Origin: a virus
IMG/VR virus record: IMGVR_UViG_3300045988_150084
Strand: one strand, 5' to 3'
Length of the DNA: 64,000 nucleotides
Shown here piece after piece: positions 5,258 to 64,000 of the stretch. The position numbers were made by a program, and so were the translations under genes. The notes beneath the pieces were generated by a model. The model did not search any database. It was not told the DNA's origin and saw nothing but the letters and a program-made list of their open reading frames with translations. How positions within the stretch are numbered: the first letter of the stretch is position 1; each line of letters opens with the position of its first letter.

Positions 5258-5333
5258 TGGAGCTACCAGTAAGACTCGAACTTACAACCTTCTGATTACA
5301 AGTCAGATGCACTACCAGTTGTGCTATGGTAGC
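5258..5333 (-). tRNA. tRNA-Thr (anticodon TGT), CCA encoded
   Basis: Hand-folded cloverleaf: acceptor GCTACCA/TGGTAGC, D-stem GCAC/GTGC, anticodon loop CTTGTAA, T-loop TTCGAGT, then discriminator T and CCA. Confidence 0.7.
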
Positions 5334-5528
5334 ATGTAGCCGTCAACACCTCTGTGAAGACATCAACGGCATGTGCGGTTAAATTTTATAGAGCGATACC
5401 GTCAAGCTCTAGGAGTGCCAACGCCCAGTTTACGGATTCTAGTCACAGCTATACCGATGGCTATCTTGTTTTGCACCCAGAAGGAGGTACTGAGTGCTTT
5501 ATATAAAAGAGTTTCCTCTCTTATAATC

Positions 5529-5616
5529 TGGTGGGTAGGAGTGGATTTGAACCACCGAAGACATAAAGCCAGCAGATTTACAGTCTGTCTCCTTTAGCCA
5601 ACTTGGATACCTACCC
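5529..5616 (-). tRNA. tRNA-Tyr (anticodon GTA), class II with a long variable arm, CCA encoded
   Basis: Acceptor GGGTAGG/CCTACCC, anticodon loop CTGTAAA, T-loop TTCAAAT, 88 nt. The long variable arm fits bacterial tRNA-Tyr. Confidence 0.6.
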
Positions 5617-5617
5617 A

Positions 5618-5692
5618 TGGCGGGGGATGTTGGACTCGAACCAACGATGCAGGAGTCAAAGTCCTGTGTCTTAACCACTTGACGAATCCCCT
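5618..5692 (-). tRNA. tRNA-Gln (anticodon TTG), CCA encoded, A1:C72 mismatch at the end of the acceptor stem
   Basis: Acceptor AGGGGAT/ATCCCCC, anticodon stem CAGGA/TCCTG with loop CTTTGAC, T-arm GTTGG TTCGAGT CCAAC. It lies 1 nt from the tRNA-Tyr gene. Confidence 0.6.
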
Positions 5693-5694
5693 AT

Positions 5695-5771
5695 TGGTGT
5701 ACCAAGAGCGGCTCGAACGCTCGACCTACGGATTAAAAGTCCGTTGCTCTAGCCTACTAAGCTATTGGTAC
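5695..5771 (-). tRNA. tRNA-Lys (anticodon TTT), CCA encoded
   Basis: Acceptor GTACCAA/TTGGTAC, D-arm GCTT..GAGC, anticodon stem ACGGA/TCCGT with loop CTTTTAA, T-arm GAGCG TTCGAGC CGCTC. Confidence 0.7.
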
Positions 5772-5775
5772 ATGA

Positions 5776-5862
5776 TGGTGCGAAAGACGGGAATCGAACC
5801 CGTACAGTATTTCTACTGGGGGATTTTAAGTCCCCTGCGTCTGCCAGTTACGCCACTCTCGC
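5776..5862 (-). tRNA. tRNA-Leu (anticodon TAA), class II
   Basis: Acceptor GCGAGAG/CTTTCGC with one G-T pair, D-stem GCGT/ACGC, anticodon stem GGGGA/TCCCC with loop CTTAAAA, a long variable stem-loop CAGTAGAAATACTG, T-arm ACGGG TTCGATT CCCGT. Confidence 0.65.
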
Positions 5863-8654: not shown

Positions 8655-8872
8655 TACTTGTTTCCTCCTCTGTTCAAAAACGACTTCTTGATATTCTTCA
8701 TCACACTTGCTGGAATACCAGCCGTAACACTCAGAGCAACCAATGTCTCCGATTTGCCGTCCGTATATCCATGAGAGTAATCACTTTCTTCTTTTGGAAT
8801 CATAGAAATTTCTTCACACACATCGGAGTACATACGGATAATTTCCTCTCTGATTTTATTGCTAAGTTCCAT
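8654..8872 (-). CDS. Hypothetical protein (72 aa)
   Basis: ORF track entry. Confidence 0.4.
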   Translation of the reverse strand: MELSNKIREEIIRMYSDVCEEISMIPKEESDYSHGYTDGKSETLVALSVTAGIPASVMKNIKKSFLNRGGNK

Positions 8873-9249
8873 TATTTATCCTCTCTTACCGTAATCCTTA
8901 ATGAGTCCTTACTTATTTCTCCTTCGATAAAAGAAATGATGTAGTCACCGTACAATTCGATTCGGAAGAATCCTCCATAAACAGAATTAATGAAAACAAT
9001 ACCTAATGAAAACTTGTCATGTATAACGCACACCTGTGTATCGTATTTATGTAAAAAGAGAGTCATATCGTTACCAATGACCACTTTATTATGTCCATTC
9101 ACGATAGAGGAAAAGAGGTCTTCAAGGGTTTTTATATTTTGGTAAGCGAGTTTTTTATTCTCCTTCGAAAAGTCTTGTATGTTCATCTTATAAGAGTGGA
9201 GCGTCACTACATTCCTTTCACCGAATACCGAACGTTCAATTATTTGCAT
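8872..9249 (-). CDS. Hypothetical protein (125 aa)
   Basis: ORF track entry. Confidence 0.45.
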   Translation of the reverse strand: MQIIERSVFGERNVVTLHSYKMNIQDFSKENKKLAYQNIKTLEDLFSSIVNGHNKVVIGNDMTLFLHKYDTQVCVIHDKFSLGIVFINSVYGGFFRIELYGDYIISFIEGEISKDSLRITVREDK

Positions 9250-9470
9250 TTCCAGTTTCCATCCTCAAATACTGCGTCAAAAGCATCCCCTGCTAAATAC
9301 TTTTTGTCAAAATCGCTTTCTGGAATAGCGCATCCACAGGTAAGACAATCCTCATCACAACCGTCACAATCCAGTTTATTCCGCGTACAGAAATCGCAAC
9401 ACATGTTGTTCATCTCGCAATCTTCAACAGCGTCCTTACACTTCAAAACACCACGACCTTTCCATGCCAT
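9240..9470 (-). CDS. Cys-rich metal-binding small protein (76 aa, about 13 Cys)
   Basis: Sequence contains CKDAVEDCEMNNMCCDFCTRNKLDCDGCDEDCLTCGC. Confidence 0.45.
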   Translation of the reverse strand: MAWKGRGVLKCKDAVEDCEMNNMCCDFCTRNKLDCDGCDEDCLTCGCAIPESDFDKKYLAGDAFDAVFEDGNWKCK

Positions 9471-9685
9471 CCTTCCTGCATAACCCTACAAACCAAGTTA
9501 TACGCTCCATCCTCTGTATATGTGTGTACCTTCGCTTTAGGTGGATATTTCTTTAGTTCGTGAATCATATCTTCCACAGTCATTCCCTTAATGTATGTAG
9601 CAAACCGTTTTCTCGATGGGGAGCGGTCAATATTTTCAACCTTCGTAATCATGCGTCGAACCCCAGATAGTAGTCCCAAGAGCAA
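9443..9685 (-). CDS. Hypothetical protein (80 aa)
   Basis: ORF track entry. Confidence 0.4.
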   Translation of the reverse strand: MLLGLLSGVRRMITKVENIDRSPSRKRFATYIKGMTVEDMIHELKKYPPKAKVHTYTEDGAYNLVCRVMQEGWHGKVVVF

Positions 9686-9769
9686 GCGACAGACACGGCC
9701 AGTTCGTACTTGCCCCAGCCGACTTCTCTTGCAAGCATAATGACTTCTTTCATTTTCTCGATTAGCTCA

Positions 9770-10018
9770 TCAATCTTCTCTTCTTTTTCCATTCGCTTTC
9801 CTCTCGAACCATAAACGGCATAACTCCTTCGCGTGATTTACCACGTTCACAATATCCTCATTTCCATTCACGTTGATGCTCATTTCTTTCAGCGTCCCCT
9901 GTATAGCATCATCGTAGATAGTAATTGTTATCAAATCTGAACCCACCACCTTTTTTAATGATATAAAGCGCCTCGGCAATCGCCCCAAGAAGCGCTCCAA
10001 AGATAAGCACGGCAACAT
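9770..10018 (-). CDS. Hypothetical protein (82 aa)
   Basis: ORF track entry. Confidence 0.4.
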   Translation of the reverse strand: MLPCLSLERFLGRLPRRFISLKKVVGSDLITITIYDDAIQGTLKEMSINVNGNEDIVNVVNHAKELCRLWFERKANGKRRED

Positions 10019-10100
10019 AGCTCAAAAAAGTAATCATAGTTACCTCAACTTTCTATGAATAAACTTGCAACTAATTAAAACAAATAGCATATAGTTACTG

Positions 10101-10322
10101 CTAAATCAGCATTTTAAGCTCCAAAAGCTCTTTTACAAGGGCCATAATCTTGCGCTTAATGCTGCATGCTGACGAAGCTGTGGTATAGCTGTAGCCCGCC
10201 GTCTTTCCAATCTCATCTGCATCAGCTCTTCCACAAACATCTCTACATAGAGAGTTCACAAGTAATCTACACAGCTCTGCTTTTTCCATAGTGAGTTCTG
10301 TTCTCTCATTCATATCTATCAC
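10101..10322 (-). CDS. Hypothetical protein (73 aa)
   Basis: ORF track entry. Confidence 0.35.
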   Translation of the reverse strand: MIDMNERTELTMEKAELCRLLVNSLCRDVCGRADADEIGKTAGYSYTTASSACSIKRKIMALVKELLELKMLI

Positions 10323-10325
10323 TCC

Positions 10326-10571
10326 TCAGATGATATGCTCTTCTGGCCGCAAAATGCCATTTTCTGTAAGCTCCCTCTCGTCAACAAATGTATACCGATT
10401 GACGAACAGCGGGCATCTGTGGCACTCAGGTAACGTATAGTCCGTCATTGCATCATACCTTCCCCCGCACAGATAGATTTTTCTGCCGCTAGTTGTCTTA
10501 ATTGATTCAACTGCGTTTCCTTTTCTCTTTTCCTCACCCTTGCGTACTAACTCACACGCGCTCTGTCTCAT
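10326..10571 (-). CDS. Hypothetical protein (81 aa) with a CxxC...C...C pattern
   Basis: ORF track entry. Confidence 0.4.
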   Translation of the reverse strand: MRQSACELVRKGEEKRKGNAVESIKTTSGRKIYLCGGRYDAMTDYTLPECHRCPLFVNRYTFVDERELTENGILRPEEHII

Positions 10572-13931: not shown

Positions 13932-15899
13932 TTAATCTGCGAGACGGATTCTACTCGTATTCAAATCCATCACTAGCTCTACTTCTTCCACCTTCGTACC
14001 ATGTCTAGCCTTGCCAACACCGAGCATGACCTTGTTCTTCTTTAGCTCCGCTTCTTCTGGCATAAGCTCTGGATTTTTACCTGGCCTCCACAGCAGGAAG
14101 ATGTTATCCGCACTCGCTTCAAGGTCGCCGCCGCCTTTGAGGTCTGCCATGCTAGGCTTCTCCCAGATACGGCTACCGCGATTCAACTGACTCAGAACAA
14201 CCACATGAATGTTATTGTCTTTTGCAAGTGGTTTCATTCCTTTAGCCGTCTCAGCAAGAAACTCGAACTGAGAACAGTTCTTCATATACTGAATGTAGTC
14301 GATAAAAACAACATCCAACTGCCCCTCGAAGAGCTTTGCGTTTGCATCCTTGATGTAAGAATCCACCTGTTTGATGTCCAGACCGTTCTTATCAATAATG
14401 TACAGATGTTCCTTGAGCTTATCGAGACAGTTATATACGAGCACATCTCCCTGCTTAATCATCTCGTCAACGATTTCAACAGGTCTTGCCAGCATACACG
14501 CCAGCACGCGCTCATAAAGTGCTCCTGCGCTCATCTCCATTGAGAAATAGAGGATATTCTTACGCTGTCTCACCACCATATCCACGCACATACAGACGGT
14601 GATGAAGGTCTTTCCTGCGCCGCTATATCCACCAATGAAGGTAACATCCTTACGCCGTCCCCCACCTCTCACACCATCGTCAACAGCTGTGATACCATAC
14701 TGGACGCTCTTCTCTTCAAGCATCGCTCTCGTCTCTTCTAGGCATTGCTCTGGCGCTTTGAAATCCTCATCGAGACGAATATCCTCTTGTGACACATGTA
14801 AGAAATCAAGAATTGCAGGACGCTCCAGTTTCCATCTCTTAGCAAGCATGTCGGCAATAGAAATTAATGTCAAGTTGTCTTTGATACTCTTTGAAAAGCT
14901 CTCCGCTACCTTCTTCTCTGCCGATTCGGAGGAACATTTATTAAGCTCCTGTTCCAACACAAAGAGGTCAAGCGATACACGTTCAAGAGAGTCGAGGTCA
15001 TTGTTTCCCTTTGTAAAATACTCATTAGCGTCCTTGATACCGTCAGGAAGAATCAGCACCTCGAACGGCACATCGGCGGCATATTTCAGAACGTTCTTCC
15101 TCACCTTTGTTAGCAGCGGATAAGCTACACCGTCATTATCAGGGACGAGCACCACGGTAAGAGACTCATATATCCTATGAATCTTTTGTAGCTCTTCGAG
15201 GTGATATTTAGACGGCTGAGAGGAATTGTAGGCAACCGCCGCATATCCAGCTTGGTGAAGACTCATCGCGTCGAAGAATCCTTCTACGAGAAACAGCGTA
15301 TTGGTAAGTCGTTCTTTCGCCCCTCTGAGGTTGAACAGGAACTTAGATTTCGTAAAAATATCGTCGTTCTTGTTGGTTAGATACTTAGGAGTTCCCTCGA
15401 ATCGCCGTAAAGCATAGCCGACATAGCGACCGTTAGTATCGACAAACGGAATAAACACATTTCCATGATTATCCGCGCCCAACGTAAACTCATTAATCGT
15501 TTCTTCTGTAAGACCGCGTTCTTTTGTGAGGTAGTCATGCACGACCTTGACGTTTTTGTGATACGTCTCTGCCGCTTCTTCGTTGTAGTTGACGATACTC
15601 TTGCGCTTCACATACCCTTCGTCTTGAGAAATATCAACGTTAAGCTCGTCAGCAAGAATCTCACAAGCGGTAAAGAAGTCAACCTGTTCCATTTCCTCGA
15701 TTAGATTGATTACATCACCGCTCTTGCCACACGCCCAACAATGAAACGTCTTATGGTCATACACGCAGAACTCCGTGGCATTGTCGTGCTTGCAAATCGG
15801 ACAGACACCACGATATACATTTCCCTGACATGTAAGCTCCGTGAACTTCTCGCAATACTCCACGAGGTCTATCTGGTCGATTAGTGCTCTTAAAATCAT
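13932..15899 (-). CDS. Bifunctional DNA primase-helicase (DnaG-type zinc finger and TOPRIM fused to a DnaB-like helicase)
   Basis: The N-terminus has the CHC2 zinc finger CPICKHDNATEFCVYDHKTFHCWACGKSG. The TOPRIM motif is LVEGFFDAMSLHQAGY and the helicase Walker A is GGYSGAGKTF. Confidence 0.8.
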   Translation of the reverse strand: MILRALIDQIDLVEYCEKFTELTCQGNVYRGVCPICKHDNATEFCVYDHKTFHCWACGKSGDVINLIEEMEQVDFFTACEILADELNVDISQDEGYVKRKSIVNYNEEAAETYHKNVKVVHDYLTKERGLTEETINEFTLGADNHGNVFIPFVDTNGRYVGYALRRFEGTPKYLTNKNDDIFTKSKFLFNLRGAKERLTNTLFLVEGFFDAMSLHQAGYAAVAYNSSQPSKYHLEELQKIHRIYESLTVVLVPDNDGVAYPLLTKVRKNVLKYAADVPFEVLILPDGIKDANEYFTKGNNDLDSLERVSLDLFVLEQELNKCSSESAEKKVAESFSKSIKDNLTLISIADMLAKRWKLERPAILDFLHVSQEDIRLDEDFKAPEQCLEETRAMLEEKSVQYGITAVDDGVRGGGRRKDVTFIGGYSGAGKTFITVCMCVDMVVRQRKNILYFSMEMSAGALYERVLACMLARPVEIVDEMIKQGDVLVYNCLDKLKEHLYIIDKNGLDIKQVDSYIKDANAKLFEGQLDVVFIDYIQYMKNCSQFEFLAETAKGMKPLAKDNNIHVVVLSQLNRGSRIWEKPSMADLKGGGDLEASADNIFLLWRPGKNPELMPEEAELKKNKVMLGVGKARHGTKVEEVELVMDLNTSRIRLAD

Positions 15900-16397: not shown

Positions 16398-17111
16398 TTA
16401 TTTACGAGGGAACTTGAAATCAAGCACCTTGGCCGCAGCCTCCTTGAGAACTGGGTCATTGCTGTTGAACTTCATCCACGTCAGAGACTTCATAGAAACC
16501 TCGGACAACTTTTTACCGTTGTTCATACTGCCGTCACTCACCACCATATCGAGGAGCTTCTGGATTTCCTCAGGTGCATTTGCCGTATCGACAGGCTTCT
16601 GATATGTGCTGCTTGAGCCGTAGGACTGCCGCTTGTCATACTCTACCTTGGCTTCGAGATTGCCACTACGCTCGTTCTCTGGGAGCGCCCAATCGGGGAG
16701 AGTAATCTTACCGTAGAAGCGTCCATTATGCAGGTCAACGCGCGGAGAATCAAGCTCATAGAGGTAGCGACCAATACCGAGCTGTGCCGCGGCACGCTTG
16801 AGAGCACCAGAGATAGCACCCTTGAGAGGAGAAGCCTGTTCCGTGAACTCAGCTCCGTCCGACTTGATGATAGTCTTGCCGCCGAACTCACACGCCAGAG
16901 TGCAGATAACACCCTTAGAGCAAGTCTCAAAACTGTCTTTCCAGCCCTCTACGCCGAAGACCTCATCGAGACGGTTCTGGATGCCACGTGCCGAGACATA
17001 GGCAAGCATCGTGCCGCTCTGACGGTCTTTGAAGGTACTACCTACACGCCACTCAATCTCTTTGCTGGAAAACGGTGCGCGGAGCAGTTCAGCTACATTT
17101 TTTTCTGCCAT
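16398..17111 (-). CDS. Rad52-family single-strand annealing protein (Sak-like)
   Basis: YVSARGIQNRLDEVFGVEGWKD...KGAISGALKRAAAQLGIGRYLY parallels the Rad52 N-terminal domain. The likely start is the ATG at 17111 with a GGAGGAAG RBS; the ORF track starts upstream at 17177. Confidence 0.65.
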   Translation of the reverse strand: MAEKNVAELLRAPFSSKEIEWRVGSTFKDRQSGTMLAYVSARGIQNRLDEVFGVEGWKDSFETCSKGVICTLACEFGGKTIIKSDGAEFTEQASPLKGAISGALKRAAAQLGIGRYLYELDSPRVDLHNGRFYGKITLPDWALPENERSGNLEAKVEYDKRQSYGSSSTYQKPVDTANAPEEIQKLLDMVVSDGSMNNGKKLSEVSMKSLTWMKFNSNDPVLKEAAAKVLDFKFPRK

Positions 17112-17286
17112 TTTGTTCTTCCTCCATCTTGAACTGAATATTAACCTTTGGCACATAGCGAGTACCGTGAGAATCAACGGCGTAAATCCTGATTGGAATA
17201 CCGTGTTTTATACAGTTTTTGCAATAAGCTGTTGCTTCGTTTACTTCGTCCGTGAGCACTCCAAATTCTTCGTGGATAAACGTCAT
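17089..17286 (-). CDS. Small CxxC protein (65 aa) leading the recombination operon; contains the spacer-2 protospacer
   Basis: An AGGAGG RBS sits 8 nt upstream of the ATG at 17286, and the protein has a CKNC motif. It overlaps the SSAP start. Confidence 0.45.
   Translation of the reverse strand: MTFIHEEFGVLTDEVNEATAYCKNCIKHGIPIRIYAVDSHGTRYVPKVNIQFKMEEEQNGRKKCS
17204..17243 (-). other. Protospacer-like self-match: 40/40 identity to spacer 2 of the array at 59539-59578 (in the reverse-complement sense)
   Basis: Checked base by base: plus strand 17204-17243 reads tgttttatacagtttttgcaataagctgttgcttcgttta, the reverse complement of spacer 2. Its position within ORF 17089..17286 was confirmed against that ORF's translation. 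Confidence 0.9.
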
Positions 17287-17434
17287 TCTTACGACCTCCT
17301 ATGTGATAATACCAGTATAGCAGAGTTAGAGCTTTACGTCAATAAAAAATTCATTTACCCAGTAATACTTTTCGGCAGACGTTCTCGTGGTAAATCAATA
17401 ATAGCACTTTGTTCGATTAGTGTCAATCTTAACT

Positions 17435-18211
17435 TTACTTAGAAAGACGCTTTGCGAGACGTACAGCGAGAGCAGGGTTTGTCTTAGAGAGACTACGCAT
17501 AAAGTCAGAATCGATAGCTTTTTTTGAAGAGACGATAGGCTTCACATCGACGGCATAGACAACGGCATGGTTTCTAGCAGGTTTCCCAATATCCTTCTTA
17601 GCTTTTTTGCCGAGTTGCCAGTTGTTTTTAAGAGCAGCGAAAAAGTAGGCAATAGGATTCTTGACAGAGAGGGAGCTATTGAGAAGGGCGAGCTTTTCTT
17701 CAACGTAGTTTACGCCAAGCTCTTTCATCTCCTCGAAGGAGCACGGCTTATTGCCAGCCAGCTTGCGTCCGTATTCCAGAACTTTCGTTGCGTAGAGGAC
17801 GGGGGAAATACCGAGGGCAGCAGCTTTCTGTCCAACGGCGGCATGGTGGCTAGTCTCAGTCTCCTTCTCAACATCGTTATTATTTGTTTTAACTATTCTA
17901 GTTTGTTCTTTGCGATTCGTAGCCATAGGGCATGTCATGGGCTTCTCGAGGATGCGGACATAGCGGCCAAGCACCATTTTAGGGATTTTGGGAGAGTACA
18001 TGAGCTTGACGGCAACAAGACCAGCGCGGCGAAGGTCGGTAATGATATGACTGATACGCGACATGGATTTACCCATCATCTCTGCAAGGCTTCGATTGTT
18101 CGCCCAGCATGAACCTGTTTTTGCGGAAAGATATTCAATTCTCTCGAACAGCAATACATGTGTGGATGTCATTTTGATACCGTTAATAGTGTCGTTCGGT
18201 TTGAACTTCAT
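17435..18211 (-). CDS. Winged-helix DNA-binding protein, putative replication initiator (Rep-like)
   Basis: A predicted HTH (SLAEMMGKSMSRISHIITDLRRAGLV) sits in the N-terminal third. The gene is divergent from the partition cassette. Function is inferred from context. Confidence 0.4.
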   Translation of the reverse strand: MKFKPNDTINGIKMTSTHVLLFERIEYLSAKTGSCWANNRSLAEMMGKSMSRISHIITDLRRAGLVAVKLMYSPKIPKMVLGRYVRILEKPMTCPMATNRKEQTRIVKTNNNDVEKETETSHHAAVGQKAAALGISPVLYATKVLEYGRKLAGNKPCSFEEMKELGVNYVEEKLALLNSSLSVKNPIAYFFAALKNNWQLGKKAKKDIGKPARNHAVVYAVDVKPIVSSKKAIDSDFMRSLSKTNPALAVRLAKRLSK

Positions 18212-18650
18212 GTTGTACCTCCATTTTTAATAAAAAAATAAGCGTCCAACACACCTTTTTGGTGCATCAGACGCTCTTGTTTCTTGAATCAGATGCTAGA
18301 CTATGTTATAATAGTCGTAGATAGTTGATGAAACAGGTGTTGTCTATTTATTTTGTTTCACCGACTTGCGTAGCTGAGTGGTGTGAAGATTACCAGCCGC
18401 GCTCGCTCTACTGGGTGGTGTAAAGGTAGACCAGTAAAGCCGCTTCTAAGTGACGCCAATCACTTGGGAGCATTTTTTTTGTTCAATTTTCAAGGAAATG
18501 TGGATAACGCTGTGGATAACTCGTGCTTCACAGATTGCTACCTACGTCTTATATGATAACTCGCTAACCCTTATGTAGTCAACGCTTAAAAGCAAATATT
18601 TACACAAAAGGTTCGGTATATTACTGAGTATTACTCAATGATATTTTTTC

Positions 18651-18679
18651 TTGACGTATCGCTTATAGTGTTATACAAT
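18651..18679 (+). promoter_or_regulatory. Sigma70-like promoter upstream of parM: TTGACG, 17-nt spacer, TACAAT
   Basis: The -35 and -10 hexamers with 17-nt spacing are read directly, about 44 nt upstream of the parM ATG. Confidence 0.5.
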
Positions 18680-18722
18680 GTGAGCGTAGATGATTTTTGC
18701 TTATCGAGAAGGAGGAATTGCC

Positions 18723-19634
18723 ATGATTTCTATCGACGTAGGATTCGGTAACACTAAGGTGTATGACGGCGAAACCTTAAACGTGTTCCCCTCTATCTAT
18801 TACCGCGCCAAGGCAGCCGAAGCCGTGAACGACCCAAGAGATATGCTCCTTGAACTTGACGGTGAAAGGTATCATGTTGGTATCACAGCCCTGCATAAAG
18901 GTGGGGAGTCACAGATGGAGCGTCACAACCTCCTCCGTCACAAGCTCTTCATTCTCTCTGCGATTTGCGCTACAACGAGAGGGGATTTCTCCGATAAGGT
19001 TCTTCTTGGTCTTCCGATTAGCGACATGGAGACGATGAAGGAATCTGTTGAAGGATTGAAAGGCGTATACCACGTTATTTTCAACGGAGAGACGCGAGAA
19101 ATCAACATCACGGCTATTAAGGTATATCCCCAGTCAGAAGCCGTATACAACCTCCTAGAGCGTCAGGACGAGAATATCAGAGACAAGGCAATCGGTATCA
19201 TCGACGTGGGACAGAAAACAGTTGACCTCGCCTACTACAACTACGGCACGCTTGATGATGATAGGTGCGGTAGTCTCACAAAACTCGGTTGCAAGTCGGC
19301 ATACCTTGACATCCAGAAAGCGCTTAATCGTGTCTGCGACATCGATACTGAGTGGTATCTGGTATCTAAGTTCTTGAACCGCGAAGCAATAGAAGAAGAT
19401 AAGAATCGTGCGTTTGAGGACATGGCGCGTAAGATTCTGAGCGCAACCAGTAATCTTGGATGGAACTACCATGAACTCGATGCAGTATACCTTATCGGCG
19501 GCGGTAGTTCTTATGTTGAGCCGTTTGTAAAAGAGCATGTAAAGGTTCTTACTGGAGAGAGCGAAAAAGTTATTATTCCGTCTAACCCAGTATTCGCGAA
19601 TGTGAGGAGTTACTACGAGGGGGAATTGAAATGA
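18723..19634 (+). CDS. parM: ParM/StbA-like actin-type partition ATPase
   Basis: Phosphate-1 ISIDVGFGNTK, phosphate-2 GIIDVGQKTVDLA, adenosine motif LIGGGS. A GAAGGAGGAA RBS precedes the ATG at 18723; the ORF track starts at an upstream ATG with no RBS. Confidence 0.7.
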   Translation: MISIDVGFGNTKVYDGETLNVFPSIYYRAKAAEAVNDPRDMLLELDGERYHVGITALHKGGESQMERHNLLRHKLFILSAICATTRGDFSDKVLLGLPISDMETMKESVEGLKGVYHVIFNGETREINITAIKVYPQSEAVYNLLERQDENIRDKAIGIIDVGQKTVDLAYYNYGTLDDDRCGSLTKLGCKSAYLDIQKALNRVCDIDTEWYLVSKFLNREAIEEDKNRAFEDMARKILSATSNLGWNYHELDAVYLIGGGSSYVEPFVKEHVKVLTGESEKVIIPSNPVFANVRSYYEGELK

Positions 19635-20044
19635 GCAAGAGAGTCTCAGTAGTATTTCCTGGGCTTATCGGGGACTATGTGGAAAAACGCATGAACCAGC
19701 TCGGTCTTACTCCTAGTCAGTTCCTTCATATCATGGTTATCAGGGACTTAATCAGACCGTTGACCATTGAAGAAGCTGGCATCTTGAGCATCGGCGTAGG
19801 TCGTATGAAGTCAGGCGGCAGTGCGGAACAGGTTATCGCTGGACTTGCCCCACTATTCGAGAGAGAAGGTTACTCCAAAAAACAGGAAGAGGAAGAACCT
19901 TTAGGAGACGATGACGTAAAGAAAGTGGTTAGCGACATCCTCTCCGAGCCAATCCCAGAACCGCCAAAGGTAGAAGAGCCAAAACAGACCGTAGAGAAAC
20001 ACCAAGACGAGCCTAAGATGGGGAATATGACAGGCTACATCTGA
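19631..20044 (+). CDS. parR: ParR-like ribbon-helix-helix partition adaptor with an acidic C-terminal tail
   Basis: The N-terminus RVSVVFPGLIGDYVEKRMNQLGLTPSQFLHIMV has an RHH-like strand-helix pattern. The gene overlaps parM (ATGA junction). The C-terminus is rich in E/D/P. Confidence 0.5.
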   Translation: MSKRVSVVFPGLIGDYVEKRMNQLGLTPSQFLHIMVIRDLIRPLTIEEAGILSIGVGRMKSGGSAEQVIAGLAPLFEREGYSKKQEEEEPLGDDDVKKVVSDILSEPIPEPPKVEEPKQTVEKHQDEPKMGNMTGYI

Positions 20045-20050
20045 AAATAG

Positions 20051-20092
20051 GCAAAAAAATAAGGGGACTGCGAAAGCAGCCCTCTTTTTATA
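20051..20092. terminator. Bidirectional intrinsic terminator between parR (+) and the XRE gene (-)
   Basis: The hairpin GGGACTGCGAAAGCAGCCC is flanked by an A-run on one side and a T-run on the other. Confidence 0.55.
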
Positions 20093-20534
20093 GTTTATTT
20101 TTTCTTTTCATCGGATATAAAGCGAATACGGCTTTCTCAAGGTCAGACGCAAGGTTTTTCTCCGCTGCTTCTTTTTCCAGCCGTAATTTTTCCTCGATTT
20201 GTTTCTTCTTATAAGCGGCGTAACCCCTTACGAGATAGTCGCGCCCTTCTCTTGTGTGAATCCATTTTTCCACATCAGCAGGGAGTGTAACAAGTTGTTC
20301 AGAAACACTAGCTTCACCTAACAGCGTATCGACAGGGATATTCATGCCCTCTGCGGCTTTGATGATGTTTTTGAGATAGACACGGCTACCCTTCATCGCT
20401 TGTAGGTATTGTGGTTTCCAGCCAATGCTACGGCAAAACTCGGCGGCAGAGATTTTATGCTGCTTGGTATATCTCTTAATAGTCTCGAACAGATAATCTC
20501 CGCTAATGTGTGTTGACTTACTATTATTTACCAT
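20088..20534 (-). CDS. XRE-family helix-turn-helix transcriptional regulator (candidate repressor)
   Basis: HTH ISAAEFCRSIGWKPQYLQAMKG. The ATG at 20534 has an AAGGAG RBS; the ORF track starts upstream. Confidence 0.55.
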   Translation of the reverse strand: MVNNSKSTHISGDYLFETIKRYTKQHKISAAEFCRSIGWKPQYLQAMKGSRVYLKNIIKAAEGMNIPVDTLLGEASVSEQLVTLPADVEKWIHTREGRDYLVRGYAAYKKKQIEEKLRLEKEAAEKNLASDLEKAVFALYPMKRKNKL

Positions 20535-20764
20535 TCGAACACACTCCTTACCAATAAATAATACAATGTGCAATCGCATGTTATCAGTACATATAATTTT
20601 TACTTTGTCCTAGTATAAAAAGCAACGAAATTTATTTATTCAAATATGATAGTATGCTTTTCTTTCATAACTAGTTAGATAACATCGTAGAGCGTCACAA
20701 GACTCTATTTACATTATATTGAATAGCAGGAGAATCCGCAAGACCTAAATCATGCTAGTTAATA

Positions 20765-23700
20765 TTAAATAATACTCCTAAATTTGTTGCCAACAACAGA
20801 CATCCGATAGATTTTATTCGTCTCGATTGGTACATAAACACTATTGAACATTACCATATCGTGCTGAGTTCCATCGGGACATTCCAGAGTAAAGAACATC
20901 ATAGGCTTACCGTTTTTCTGTTTCCAATGTTTGATACGTCGCACAACACCGAGAACAATACGGACACGTTTGTCTTGCTCATCGGGAGCCTGATATTTAC
21001 TTGTATCATAATCAGCGAAAATATCTTCAAAGGTCATGCCGAGCACTTCCAGCTCTCCAGCCTTGTAATCATAGTCTTCGTCGGTATTCTTAACCTCTTT
21101 GATTTTCTGTTCGATGTCCCAATACTTAGAGCTGTAATCAAGATACTTCTTATGAGCTTCTTTCTTCTTCTTCGTACCGTCTTTCGCTGTCTCATAGATA
21201 GCCTTATTCTTCTCGATTCGCTCTTTCACGGTAGAAAGCTGTCTGTTCAGCTTGTCAAGCGTGCCGCTCTGGTATACATCCTGCAAGAGTTCACTCCTGT
21301 CACCGAGGAAGTCAAGTGCTCCTGCTTTGATAAGATTTTCTACCTTGTCCTTTGGGAGTTTCTTATAGCTCTGATAGTCAAGAGGAACAGGAATATCGCC
21401 AATGCCAGAGATATAGTTAATAGCCATTCTGATAGTTTTATCGTCAACCACTTCCCAATCACAGGTATGTGAACGCGCATCGGGAGGGAGAATCTTGATA
21501 CCGTGCCGACGAGCGTCATTGACATATACTAGAAGGTCTTCCTGTTTGTCTCCGTTGTAGGCGTTGAGATAGGCACAAAGGAACTCAGCAGGGTAATGAG
21601 CCTTGAGGTATGCCGTCTGATAGCAAGTATAGCCGTAAGCCGCGCTGTGCGATTTGTTGAACTGATACGCCGCCGCATTGGACAACCATTCTGCCAACTT
21701 TTGAGCGACATCTTGACTTACACCACGTTTCTCGCAATCATTCACAAACTGAGGGACAAGTTTAGCCATCTCCTCTGGAATCTTCCTACCGATAGCACGA
21801 CGAAACACATCTGCTTGACCAAGGTCATACCCTGCCATAGCCTGTACAATCTGCATAGCCTGTTCCTGATAAAGCATGACACCATAGGTATCTTTCAAGC
21901 AATCCTCTACCCAAGGATGGATGTATGTAAACGGCTGTCCTTTTCTCCGATTCGTAAACTCATCAACCATGCCGCTCTGAATAGTGCTAGGACGATACAA
22001 TGCCACCAACGGAACAATATCGAACACATTTTGAGGTTTGATGTCTTGAATGATTTTCCGCATACCACCAGACTCAATCTGAAAACATCCGAGAACATCA
22101 TCATGGTTCAGCATATCGAAGGTAGCCGTATCTGTGTCAGGAAGGTTGTCTACGTCCACAGACGCGCCGTAACGTGCCTCCACCATCTTACAGGTGTTAT
22201 CTATCACGTCAAGCGTTTTAATGCCCAGAACGTCCTCTTTGAGTAGTCCCATGGCTTCGAGGTCGTGATACTCATAGGCACACACATAGTCTTCTCCCTG
22301 TTTCTCAATAGCACACCACTCCGTAGGGTCACTAGAAAAAAGCATGACAGCACTTGCATGACAGCCATAGTTTTGAATAATGCCAACATACTTCATCGCA
22401 AGGTCTTTCAAACGCTCATCGGTCTGTTCTTCAATGGTCTTAGGAAGATTGCGAATCGCAGAAGGTTCATAGCCAAGACTTCTAGCCGCTCTTTGAATTG
22501 CCGCACGCTCCCCCATCAGTCCAAAAGTGCGAACGTGATATACCTCGTGATACTTGTCTACAAGATATTGGATAGCATCGCCGCGCCTACTGTTGGGAAC
22601 ATCCGTGTCAATATCTGCGCTCGAACTTCTTTTGTCGTGTGCAAACCTTTCAAAGATAAGCCCGTACTTGATAGGGTCAATGCGAGTAATGTCCATGAGG
22701 TAAGCAACAAGACAGCCACCGACACTACCACGTCCGATACCCGTCCTGATACCGAGGTTGTGACATCCTCTTACAAAGTCCTCTGTCATAAGCATGTAGT
22801 TCGTATAGTCAATCTTATCGAGAACCTTGATTTCATGGTCAATCTGCGCTTTGTACTTGGGATATTCTGACTCAGGAACATGACCGACAATCTTCTTTTT
22901 GAACCCATCCGCTACTAGCTTGCACATCTGAGAGAGGGGCGTTTCGCCGTCAGGAACTTCAAAGACAGGATAATGTTTTTCTCCAAAAGGAATCTCTACC
23001 TGCTCACACTTGTCCGCTACACGCTCAGTTTCCTCGATTAGCTCATCAGCAATAGTGCCGTCAAGGTAGCTCAGAGCATCGCGTGCTTGCTGTTCGGAAT
23101 GGATATAGTAATCGTCAGTCTGATAGTAAGTGCTGTCTTCGTCGATACCGAGCCATTTCCTATGTGTGTCCGCTTCATCTTTGTTGACATAGTGAGAGTC
23201 CTCAGTAACATAAGCAGAGATACCTAAGTCCGTGGCGAGGTCAAGCATGTTCTGGTTATACTTCTTTTGCTCTTCATCTGTACCGAGCTGCAATTCAACA
23301 TAAAAATCCTCACCAAAAACATCTTGGAAGGTCTTAGCACGGTCATAGGCAAGGTCATAGTCCCACTCGTCACCGTTTCGCGGATTGAGAAGACCACCCA
23401 TGCAAGCAGAGGAAATAATCAGACCTTCTTTATGAGCGATAATATCCTCGGTAGTGAGCCGCATTGTGTAGAAGAAATTATCAGGTTTATTTCCCTTGTC
23501 ACCATATCCAATCGTTGCTAATCGGAGAAGATTATGATAGCCTGTCTCGTTCTTAGCAAGTAAGATAATATGGCAACTAGCCTTTCTGTCTTTGACGTAA
23601 TAGTTAGGAACCCAGTACCCCTCCATACCAAAGATAAACTTGATAGATGTACCGTGCTCCTTGTTGTACTTCTTTGTCTCTTTGTACGCCTCCATAAGAC

Positions 23701-23833
23701 CGCTCGTCGTGCCGTGGTCTGTCAGCGCCCAAGCAGTTTGTCCAAGCTCTCCGATTCGAGAAACCATCTCTGGAATTTTAGCAATGGCATCTCTCTTTGA
23801 GTAATGACTGTGCCTATGTAACCCTACGAACAT
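20765..23833 (-). CDS. dnaE: DNA polymerase III alpha subunit (DnaE-type, PHP domain plus polymerase core)
   Basis: 1022 aa. The N-terminal PHP motif is GLHRHSHYS...ALTDHGTTSG, and the length and layout are those of a replicative polymerase. Confidence 0.8.
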   Translation of the reverse strand: MFVGLHRHSHYSKRDAIAKIPEMVSRIGELGQTAWALTDHGTTSGLMEAYKETKKYNKEHGTSIKFIFGMEGYWVPNYYVKDRKASCHIILLAKNETGYHNLLRLATIGYGDKGNKPDNFFYTMRLTTEDIIAHKEGLIISSACMGGLLNPRNGDEWDYDLAYDRAKTFQDVFGEDFYVELQLGTDEEQKKYNQNMLDLATDLGISAYVTEDSHYVNKDEADTHRKWLGIDEDSTYYQTDDYYIHSEQQARDALSYLDGTIADELIEETERVADKCEQVEIPFGEKHYPVFEVPDGETPLSQMCKLVADGFKKKIVGHVPESEYPKYKAQIDHEIKVLDKIDYTNYMLMTEDFVRGCHNLGIRTGIGRGSVGGCLVAYLMDITRIDPIKYGLIFERFAHDKRSSSADIDTDVPNSRRGDAIQYLVDKYHEVYHVRTFGLMGERAAIQRAARSLGYEPSAIRNLPKTIEEQTDERLKDLAMKYVGIIQNYGCHASAVMLFSSDPTEWCAIEKQGEDYVCAYEYHDLEAMGLLKEDVLGIKTLDVIDNTCKMVEARYGASVDVDNLPDTDTATFDMLNHDDVLGCFQIESGGMRKIIQDIKPQNVFDIVPLVALYRPSTIQSGMVDEFTNRRKGQPFTYIHPWVEDCLKDTYGVMLYQEQAMQIVQAMAGYDLGQADVFRRAIGRKIPEEMAKLVPQFVNDCEKRGVSQDVAQKLAEWLSNAAAYQFNKSHSAAYGYTCYQTAYLKAHYPAEFLCAYLNAYNGDKQEDLLVYVNDARRHGIKILPPDARSHTCDWEVVDDKTIRMAINYISGIGDIPVPLDYQSYKKLPKDKVENLIKAGALDFLGDRSELLQDVYQSGTLDKLNRQLSTVKERIEKNKAIYETAKDGTKKKKEAHKKYLDYSSKYWDIEQKIKEVKNTDEDYDYKAGELEVLGMTFEDIFADYDTSKYQAPDEQDKRVRIVLGVVRRIKHWKQKNGKPMMFFTLECPDGTQHDMVMFNSVYVPIETNKIYRMSVVGNKFRSII

Positions 23834-59428: not shown

Positions 59429-59613
59429 GTTTCCGTCCCCTTACGGGGATTTTGTTTTTCAACGAAGAAGAGTTTTATTCGACCGTCGCGCCCGCTGATG
59501 AAAGTTTCCGTCCCCTTACGGGGATTTTGTTTTTCAACTAAACGAAGCAACAGCTTATTGCAAAAACTGTATAAAACAGTTTCCGTCCCCTTACGGGGAT
59601 TTTGTTTTTCAAC
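59429..59613 (-). CRISPR. Mini-CRISPR array with 3 identical 35-nt repeats (gtttccgtccccttacggggattttgtttttcaac on the plus strand) and two 40-nt spacers; type III-A-like repeat read on the minus strand
   Basis: Repeats at 59429-59463, 59504-59538 and 59579-59613 are identical. Spacers are 59464-59503 and 59539-59578. The repeat reverse complement GTTGAAAAACAAAATCCCCGTAAGGGGACGGAAAC has the hairpin plus ACGGAAAC tag layout typical of type III-A repeats. Strand is inferred from that. Confidence 0.8.
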
Positions 59614-59734
59614 ACGCTCGTCGGGAATAGAGTTACGCGAGTACCCTGCTATATGGATTAATATTGACCCGTAGACTCCGAGAACAGGGGACGCGGCCGG
59701 CGAGGGCCTCTAACGTGACAGGTTAGTAGGTACG

Positions 59735-63927: not shown

Positions 63928-64000
63928 GGAGGAATTAAAATGAAAGACAAAATTTTTCCGTGTATCTTATGGATATGTTGACAAGGCCGTGGATGGAGGA

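Follow-up and report, generated by a model that had tools for sequence, protein, structure and literature searches.

The stretch of DNA analysed here, referred to below as the window, comprises 64,000 nucleotides (nt) of the virus record IMGVR_UViG_3300045988_150084. It covers most of a phage genome, with genes chiefly on the minus strand. Between positions 17435 and 20534 it carries an actin-type partition gene pair, parM and parR, together with a divergent gene for a Rep-like protein and an intergenic region of 510 bp (18212-18722) that separates this gene from parM. The features of the locus, several of which recur in up to seven related lineages, are the following.

17435-18211, minus strand: Rep-like protein of 258 amino acids (aa) with an N-terminal winged helix, heading a leftward replication operon
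18230-18276, minus strand: hairpin of 16 bp plus U-run in the rep leader, resembling an intrinsic terminator and a candidate leader attenuator (terminator scan)
18284-18312, plus strand: candidate small-RNA promoter, TTGAAT-17-TATAAT with extended TG, in the same place in seven of seven lineages
18319-18480, plus strand: candidate structured non-coding RNA of ~160 nt, with a terminator stem at 18442-18471 plus T8, fully antisense to the rep leader
18499-18507 and 18511-18519, minus strand: two perfect DnaA boxes (TTATCCACA), 12 bp apart, with an AT-rich stretch (18472-18497) alongside
18553-18582, minus strand: candidate leftward promoter of the rep operon, TTGACT-18-TATCAT (promoter scan)
18618-18644: inverted repeat around TGAGTATTACTCA, ending 6 bp before the -35 element of the parMR promoter; best candidate for a ParR operator or minimal parC
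18625-18637: perfect 6-1-6 palindrome TGAGTATTACTCA, read directly
18651-18679, plus strand: parMR promoter, TTGACG-17-TACAAT
18723-19634, plus strand: parM, actin-like segregation ATPase of 303 aa (Pfam, PHROG, PDB profile, motifs)
19631-20044, plus strand: parR-like adaptor of 137 aa (CopG match of an orthologue profile; RHH_1 in one orthologue)
20051-20092, both strands: bidirectional terminator hairpin between parR and the convergent regulator, with an A-run before and a T-run after
20088-20534, minus strand: putative helix-turn-helix regulator with a called length of 148 aa, its gene lying upstream of that for DNA polymerase III alpha (PolIII-alpha)

The identification of ParM and ParR is solid, and we hold it with high confidence. 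ParM lies well above the Pfam cutoff for ALP_N (5.7e-19; 69 bits, cutoff 26.3) and also exceeds that for MreB-like_C (7e-8; 33.5 bits, cutoff 27.8), and it matches PHROG 691, "partition protein", over its full length (1e-49). The models specific to ParM stay under their cutoffs, with 1e-5 for the ParM C-terminal model and a distant match of 20.8 bits, against a cutoff of 417, for NCBIfam ParM. A profile of 12 ParM sequences matches solved ParMs, namely pCBH ParM (6ixw, 2e-19), ALP12, Cbc-ParM and pSK41 ParM. An earlier note on this DNA had read the nucleotide-binding motifs of the protein as complete; phosphate-1 (D5-G7-G9-N10-K12), phosphate-2 (D161-G163-Q-K-T166-D168) and adenosine (G259-G261) are indeed invariant among the 12 homologues. 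The window ParM therefore qualifies as the actin-fold ATPase of a type II ParMRC system, with ATP-dependent filament formation and replicon stabilisation as its putative function. Its start was placed at ATG 18723, which lies 6 nt past AGGAGG (18711-18716) and is used in gene calls on nine contigs; ATG 18690 was set aside in favour of this start.

The adaptor gene follows directly, its ATG (19631) and the parM stop codon overlapping as ATGA. Taken alone, the window ParR matches no family in Pfam, PHROGs or NCBIfam. A profile of five orthologues matches the ribbon-helix-helix (RHH) repressor CopG (1b01/2cpg) over residues 1-37 (3e-5), and the orthologue in the related locus L081 stands above the Pfam RHH_1 cutoff (25.6 bits vs 20.5). 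The window protein begins with the RHH domain, continues in an acidic, proline-rich linker and finishes in a short hydrophobic tail at its C-terminus, and seven ParR orthologues follow the same plan, with a variable linker that is acidic or proline-rich and a short, mostly hydrophobic C-terminal end. Type II ParMRC systems have such an RHH adaptor gene downstream of the ATPase gene, and the tail may bind the ends of ParM filaments. The overlapping RHH ParR, the TTGACG-17-TACAAT promoter and the bidirectional terminator described in the earlier note are all upheld, the RHH assignment through the orthologues and the promoter by its recurrence at an equivalent position in all seven lineages. The "XRE regulator" said to flank the cassette fared less well: the product of the 20088-20534 gene has a single, weak match, to PHROG 8 "transcriptional regulator" (2e-6), and none in Pfam or the PDB.

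Homologues of this ParM are rare. A word-indexed search of 5.8 billion proteins returned 12 clusters; the single protein had no match in IMG/VR or the GTDB species genomes and matches of only 21-28% identity in the phage collection, where a DNA query spanning 17000-21000 found nothing. A ParM alignment searched against GTDB retrieved only actin-like proteins of Desulfobacterota (22-27% identical), which were deemed irrelevant. Wherever a lineage has context, the gene order is Rad52, small open reading frame (ORF), Rep-like gene, intergenic region, parM, parR, convergent regulator and PolIII-alpha, and the cassette keeps its position down to 44-46% ParM identity. This recurring order indicates that parMR is a core gene pair of the phage lineage rather than a recent acquisition.

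The Rep-like gene, divergent from parM, is followed in its leftward operon by a 65-aa ORF, Rad52, a 117-aa ORF and the primase-helicase gene. An AlphaFold2 model of the Rep-like protein, confident for the N-terminus only, places a winged helix-turn-helix (wHTH) over residues 1-90, with predicted local distance difference test values of ~57-86 per 10-residue block, and Foldseek returned generic wHTH folds for it. The protein matches Pfam HTH_36 (1e-4), the orthologue P0015 bears PF13730, and the N-terminus alone matches the PHROG replication-initiator families 2880, 19658 and 391 (1e-6 to 1e-5); a profile found no significant match among PDB sequences. The winged helix announced in the earlier note is thus confirmed, and "Rep" is a weak label that draws on these PHROG matches and on gene context. 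Two of the relatives depart from the common order here. After the leader hairpin, L016 (4760-5900) and L015 (1-250) have no Rep-like ORF; in its place stands an ORF-free stretch of ~1.1 kb that is partly conserved between them (~70% over 240 nt). Its only Rfam match, EGFOA RNA at 29.4 bits, falls below the gathering score of 37.7; the stretch could be the remains of a gene or a large structured RNA.

Despite little sequence identity, the seven lineages have a common architecture in the intergenic region. On the rep side, the hairpin at 18230-18276 lies downstream of all possible rep promoters and ends ~20 nt before the rep ribosome-binding site (RBS). It appears in the minimum free energy (MFE) fold of the leader, which displays no obvious pre-emptor or alternative leader structure, and the relatives have an equivalent hairpin followed by a T-run. 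The candidate small RNA on the opposite strand has an MFE of -56.7 kcal/mol (z = -4.25), and none of 200 shuffled sequences folds equally well; its equivalents in the relatives measure 125-163 nt, with z between -2.9 and -5.9. This RNA matches no Rfam family, searches of the window and of the intergenic region giving only tRNAs and sub-threshold noise, and the small-RNA region contains no conserved ORF. A type I toxin was considered for the strand opposite the small RNA, where no convincing small hydrophobic ORF was found. Consensus folding of three homologues suffered from a poor alignment, and we claim no covariation. An antisense RNA within the leader, combined with a terminator 5' of the rep RBS as in replicons of the pT181/pIP501 type, is predicted here and conserved in six to seven lineages. 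As any transcript running leftward into rep has to pass first through the stretch opposite the small RNA and next through the terminator, we infer that the replication operon is under attenuation or antisense control.

Further towards parM, the tandem DnaA boxes are the only two perfect copies of TTATCCACA on either strand of the 64 kb, where ~0.5 would be expected by chance. L014, L015 and L081 each have one perfect box, the only one in the locus and at an equal distance from parM (~215-265 bp), and L016 has two boxes with one mismatch at the corresponding position. The intergenic regions of L018 and of the plasmid pSRC4, described below, are without a DnaA box, and pSRC4 has none within one mismatch. 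The minus-strand promoter adjoins the boxes in 6/7 lineages and reaches perfect consensus in L081. The tandem boxes are thus a candidate origin or DnaA-regulated site.

The earlier note had proposed direct repeats and a near-palindrome upstream of parM as parC centromere or operator sites. Both are present, with GATAACTCG and TGTGGATAAC occurring twice each in the intergenic region. The GGATAAC/GATAACTCG repeats were rejected as parC because they are the exact DnaA-box consensus and keep their position across lineages whose ParR proteins differ. The palindrome TGAGTATTACTCA is enclosed by two TATTACT repeats (18619 and 18630) that lie 11 bp apart; beside the -35 element, this palindrome with its two-copy repeat is the sole parC candidate in the window. 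No 7-mer with three copies and no convincing iterated parC array was found upstream of parM. L014 resembles the window in this respect, whereas L015, L018, pSRC4 and L081 carry three to five AT-rich iterons of 7-9 nt between the DnaA boxes and parM, across the parM promoter; AAATATGTG, for instance, is present four times in L015, and L018, pSRC4 and L081 have repeats of the TACATAA type.

Circular closure of the genome, in line with what the earlier note suggested looking for, is seen in assembled contigs. Position 64000 of the window rejoins position 1 via 3,731 bp in independent metagenome contigs, giving a circle of 67,731 bp of which 5.5% lies outside the window; these contigs come from Fijian human samples, and their identity to the window is 99.9-100%. 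The omitted 3.7 kb (L006 10973-14703) contains a 146-aa ORF, an Xer-like tyrosine recombinase gene, a 72-aa ORF, the gene for a sigma/LuxR-like protein of 246 aa, an 81-aa ORF, nrdG and the 5' part of nrdD, the gene that is interrupted by the window start. All eight long metagenome contigs that include the last window gene, drawn from several samples, continue into the recombinase gene and then into nrdG, nrdD and phoH, which form the other end of the window. None of the eight shows a phage-host junction or bacterial DNA across the recombinase region.

The recombinase (293 aa; L006 11432-12313) begins ~460 bp beyond window position 64000. It scores 69.9 bits against PF00589 and 2e-32 against PHROG 1 "integrase", and its catalytic residues are all readable in the sequence. 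It aligns end to end with enzymes of the XerA/XerC/XerD type, Xer proteins are its nearest solved relatives, and it is short, with no extra arm-binding domain. The statement in the earlier note that the 64 kb window shows no integrase is literally true, as no recombinase is encoded there, and is an artefact of where the window ends; claims of absence drawn from a truncated window are unsafe when the "missing" gene is 460 bp away. That note took the lack of an integration module as support for a phage-plasmid, a mark that is not strict for such elements, and a PF00589 recombinase is present. It also named an integrase with flanking att sites as the finding that would speak against it; half of this exists, as an integrase-family gene just outside the window, and neither att sites nor host junctions were found. 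A lox/dif-like core site was sought beside the recombinase, where only a bidirectional terminator lies, and no att-like or lox/dif-like site was found near the gene. Its presence is not proof of integration. Phage-plasmids can use recombinases to resolve dimers or to change state, and P1 is among those with an enzyme of this type for dimers (PMC7969092). Most likely, the Xer-like enzyme would serve to resolve multimers.

The best available evidence on the lifestyle of the family comes from a relative in a cultured strain. A tblastn search of the plasmid collection returned one close ParM (46% identity, 2e-76), encoded by pSRC4 (NC_017069.1), the record of a complete circular plasmid of 72,893 bp from the isolate Selenomonas ruminantium subsp. 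lactilytica TAM6421. ORF-by-ORF tblastn shows pSRC4 to be colinear with the closed phage genome almost throughout, with amino acid identities of 80-83% for the large terminase (TerL), 68% for the major capsid protein, 64% for the portal, 62% for PolIII-alpha, 60% for the primase-helicase, 46% for ParM, 36% for the Rep-like protein and 32% for the recombinase. Like the window, it has the parM/parR/rep block, the terminator hairpin, the small-RNA architecture and a tyrosine recombinase. It differs in having an amidase in place of the GH25 lysin, extra genes and no DnaA box in the intergenic region. The record is annotated as a plasmid with phage genes, and a literature search for pSRC4 and NC_017069 found no paper. 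We regard pSRC4 in its entirety as a phage of this family that is maintained extrachromosomally, and its host indicates Negativicutes hosts for the phage family. A second plasmid of TAM6421, NC_017073.1 (73,380 bp), encodes a phage large terminase that is 38% identical; the strain may carry two phage-plasmids.

On balance, and with moderate confidence, we read the region as a block for plasmid maintenance in a temperate siphovirus-like phage that persists as a low-copy circular episome, that is, a phage-plasmid; its host is probably a Negativicutes bacterium, and its packaging probably headful. The element combines a complete set of virion, packaging and lysis genes (TerL, portal, capsid, tail, lysin) with plasmid-type partition and replication functions, namely parMR, the Rep-like wHTH gene and the tandem DnaA boxes. 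The reading follows from pSRC4, from this plasmid-like block and from the lack of host junctions, and not from a missing integrase. The low-copy plasmid prophage of the earlier note accordingly survives as the best reading, chiefly through pSRC4, and its argument from integrase absence fails. The evidence for extrachromosomal maintenance, consisting of pSRC4 and the eight contigs, is indirect.

We propose that the parMR pair is translationally coupled and is transcribed as one operon from the promoter at 18651-18679. Through their RHH N-termini, ParR dimers would attach to DNA that covers this promoter or lies upstream of it, with 18618-18644 as the best candidate site, and their binding would repress the operon. 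The C-terminal tail of ParR would capture the ends of ATP-driven ParM filaments, which would push sister copies apart, and the Xer-like recombinase encoded outside the window would resolve multimers. The components of this partition system are identified, and the mechanism is modelled on them. In the replication half of the block, it is the architecture that is directly visible, and function is deduced from it. The tandem DnaA boxes and the AT-rich patch could mark a host-DnaA-dependent origin or control site. They adjoin the promoter of the rep, Rad52 and primase-helicase operon, whose leader of ~300 nt lies opposite the small RNA and finishes with a strong terminator, and Rep synthesis would probably be gated by attenuation. 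More tentatively, and with rather low confidence, the 510-bp region could act as a switch between plasmid-mode and lytic replication, in which the small RNA and leader terminator attenuate the leftward operon while DnaA acts beside its promoter. If so, a copy-control circuit of Gram-positive type would serve as lysogeny and replication governor of an undescribed family of Negativicutes phage-plasmids in gut and rumen.

The partition cassette compares most directly with the type II ParMRC systems, namely R1 ParMRC, pSK41 ParMR, clostridial pCBH ParM and ALP12 (pE88). In common with these, it has an actin-fold ATPase gene followed by a gene for a small RHH adaptor in one operon under a sigma-70-type promoter, and in the adaptor a flexible linker leads to a C-terminal tail; the solved proteins nearest to its ParM come from clostridial plasmids. 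It differs in being distant in sequence, in having no visible iterated centromere array and in being phage-borne. For replication control, the model cases are pT181 and pIP501/pAMbeta1, in which a countertranscript drives attenuation of rep. By analogy, the predicted rep leader here crosses an opposite gene for a small structured RNA and has an intrinsic terminator just 5' of the rep RBS; there is, however, no sequence or Rfam relationship, and no alternative anti-terminator pairing was seen in the window leader.

Among phages, P1 has ParAB-parS partition, a RepA origin with DnaA boxes and Cre-lox, and the Clostridium botulinum phage c-st encodes ParM. Like these model phage-plasmids, the window element is a probable temperate phage with partition genes, with DnaA boxes in a replication region beside its initiator gene and with a small tyrosine recombinase for which integration is not obligatory (PMC7969092). 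Cbc-ParM, one of the solved proteins matched by the ParM profile, is likewise clostridial. The element has no sequence relationship to P1, its partition is type II whereas that of P1 is type I, and its plasmid state is a probable one. In the Corynebacterium prophage CGP3, the actin-like AlpC likewise acts with a DNA-binding adaptor, AlpA, which binds sites upstream of its own operon (PMC4446434, PMC5539076). CGP3 differs in being integrated and in using AlpAC for replication and transport after induction, and no specific sequence similarity was detected between the window cassette and AlpC/AlpA.

Several points weigh against a phage-plasmid. The physical state of the element is read from sequence, and circular closure without host junctions would also suit a virulent phage. 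What is labelled a plasmid in pSRC4 might, in principle, be the genome of a phage that was replicating or in a carrier state. The Rep assignment is weak, and the window is without a clear iterated parC, its candidate palindrome not being conserved in the closest relative, L014, despite a near-identical ParR N-terminus. Partition genes also occur in phages not known as plasmids, such as the BigBertha group (PMC7969092), and in prophage CGP3 an actin-like protein serves lytic replication (PMC4446434). Finally, a tyrosine recombinase with all its catalytic residues means that the phage could integrate or alternate between states.

The strongest competing explanation, which we consider unlikely, is that the actin-like protein and its adaptor act in the lytic cycle of a phage that may be virulent or integrative, positioning or transporting replicating DNA as AlpC/AlpA do for CGP3 instead of partitioning a plasmid prophage. 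The cassette lies inside the replication module, with the Rep-like/Rad52/primase-helicase genes on one side and PolIII-alpha on the other, and belongs to the core of the lineage; the phage codes for its own replisome, NrdDG, dUTPase and tRNAs; circular contigs suit a virulent phage just as well; and the ParMR-like pair AlpAC is needed for efficient phage DNA replication (PMC4446434, PMC5539076). Against it stands pSRC4, a circular replicon in a cultured and sequenced isolate. Moreover, the RHH ParR, the promoter-proximal repeats of the relatives and the operon order are those of the classical type II plasmid arrangement, and the DnaA boxes and terminator-gated rep leader resemble low-copy replication control. 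Lytic and partition roles are not mutually exclusive. Less likely still is an ordinary integrative temperate phage whose recombinase is an integrase and whose parMR is an accessory that stabilises a transient excised form, or a remnant. The PF00589 and PHROG 1 matches and the readable catalytic residues of the enzyme agree with this, as does the position of its gene beside a convergent intergenic region, a frequent location of attP. However, 0/8 long contigs show a phage-host junction, the GTDB scan found no relative inside a chromosome, the recombinase orthologue of pSRC4 coexists with the plasmid state, and the short enzyme has no arm-binding domain and best matches Xer-type recombinases. 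That the cassette is a decaying or chance feature devoid of function, as the missing clear parC and the failure of ParR alone to match a family might suggest, is extremely improbable given its intact ORFs, invariant ParM catalytic motifs, conserved promoter, RBS and terminator, synteny across lineages of only 36-46% identity and the absence of frameshifted or missing copies among the relatives.

Good descriptions of phage-plasmids exist for enterobacteria, Bacillus, clostridia and mycobacteria. To our knowledge none has been described from Negativicutes, and a literature search found no such description. Together with eight or more related metagenome lineages and pSRC4, the window would represent a new phage-plasmid lineage of the human gut and rumen. 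It also provides a replicon and a stability cassette that could be tried in genetic tools for Selenomonas-like bacteria, and it bears on whether such contigs are classified as virus, plasmid or both.

Elsewhere in the window lie the genes for the primase-helicase (13932-15899), Rad52 (16398-17177), PolIII-alpha (20765-23833), a DNA methyltransferase and a minus-strand cluster of five tRNAs (Thr, Tyr, Gln, Lys, Leu; 5258-5862). TerL was assigned by tblastn matches to annotated large terminases and the portal by PF04860, and the genome further encodes an SU10-type capsid protein, a tape-measure protein of 2909 aa, tail and baseplate proteins and a GH25 lysin. The terminase is nearest to Mu-like headful terminases, which fits a circularly permuted genome. 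PolIII-alpha is a single ORF of 1022 aa in the window and is split into two ORFs in three relatives (L014 12076-15423, L016 8540-12484, L017 2332-5827). The halves in L016 are separated by an HNH/NUMOD4 homing-endonuclease gene, which suggests a mobile intron or intein-type insertion. The L017 contig ends (9098-9246) in a gene for a 407-aa reverse transcriptase (RVT_1) beside structural genes, which may be a diversity-generating retroelement. The phage is also carried by a 100.5-kb scaffold, ENA ERZ28569052 scaffold_103 (L001 = record 65284-86195), which extends ~33 kb beyond one genome length and diverges from the window across window positions 8723-10447; the additional sequence may be a wrap-around of the circle, a strain chimera or foreign DNA.

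At 59429-59616 of the window, three ~35-nt repeats (GTTTCCGTCCCCTTACGGGGATTTTGTTTTTCAAC) at 75 bp spacing make up a mini CRISPR-like array. The first spacer in it (59464-59503) agrees in 39/40 positions with a site in the phage itself (60088-60127), and an episomal state, if true, would bear on how such a self-matching spacer is tolerated. The contig k119_101089 lacks ~40-75 bp inside the array (roughly window 59464-59503), indicating that the array differs between samples.

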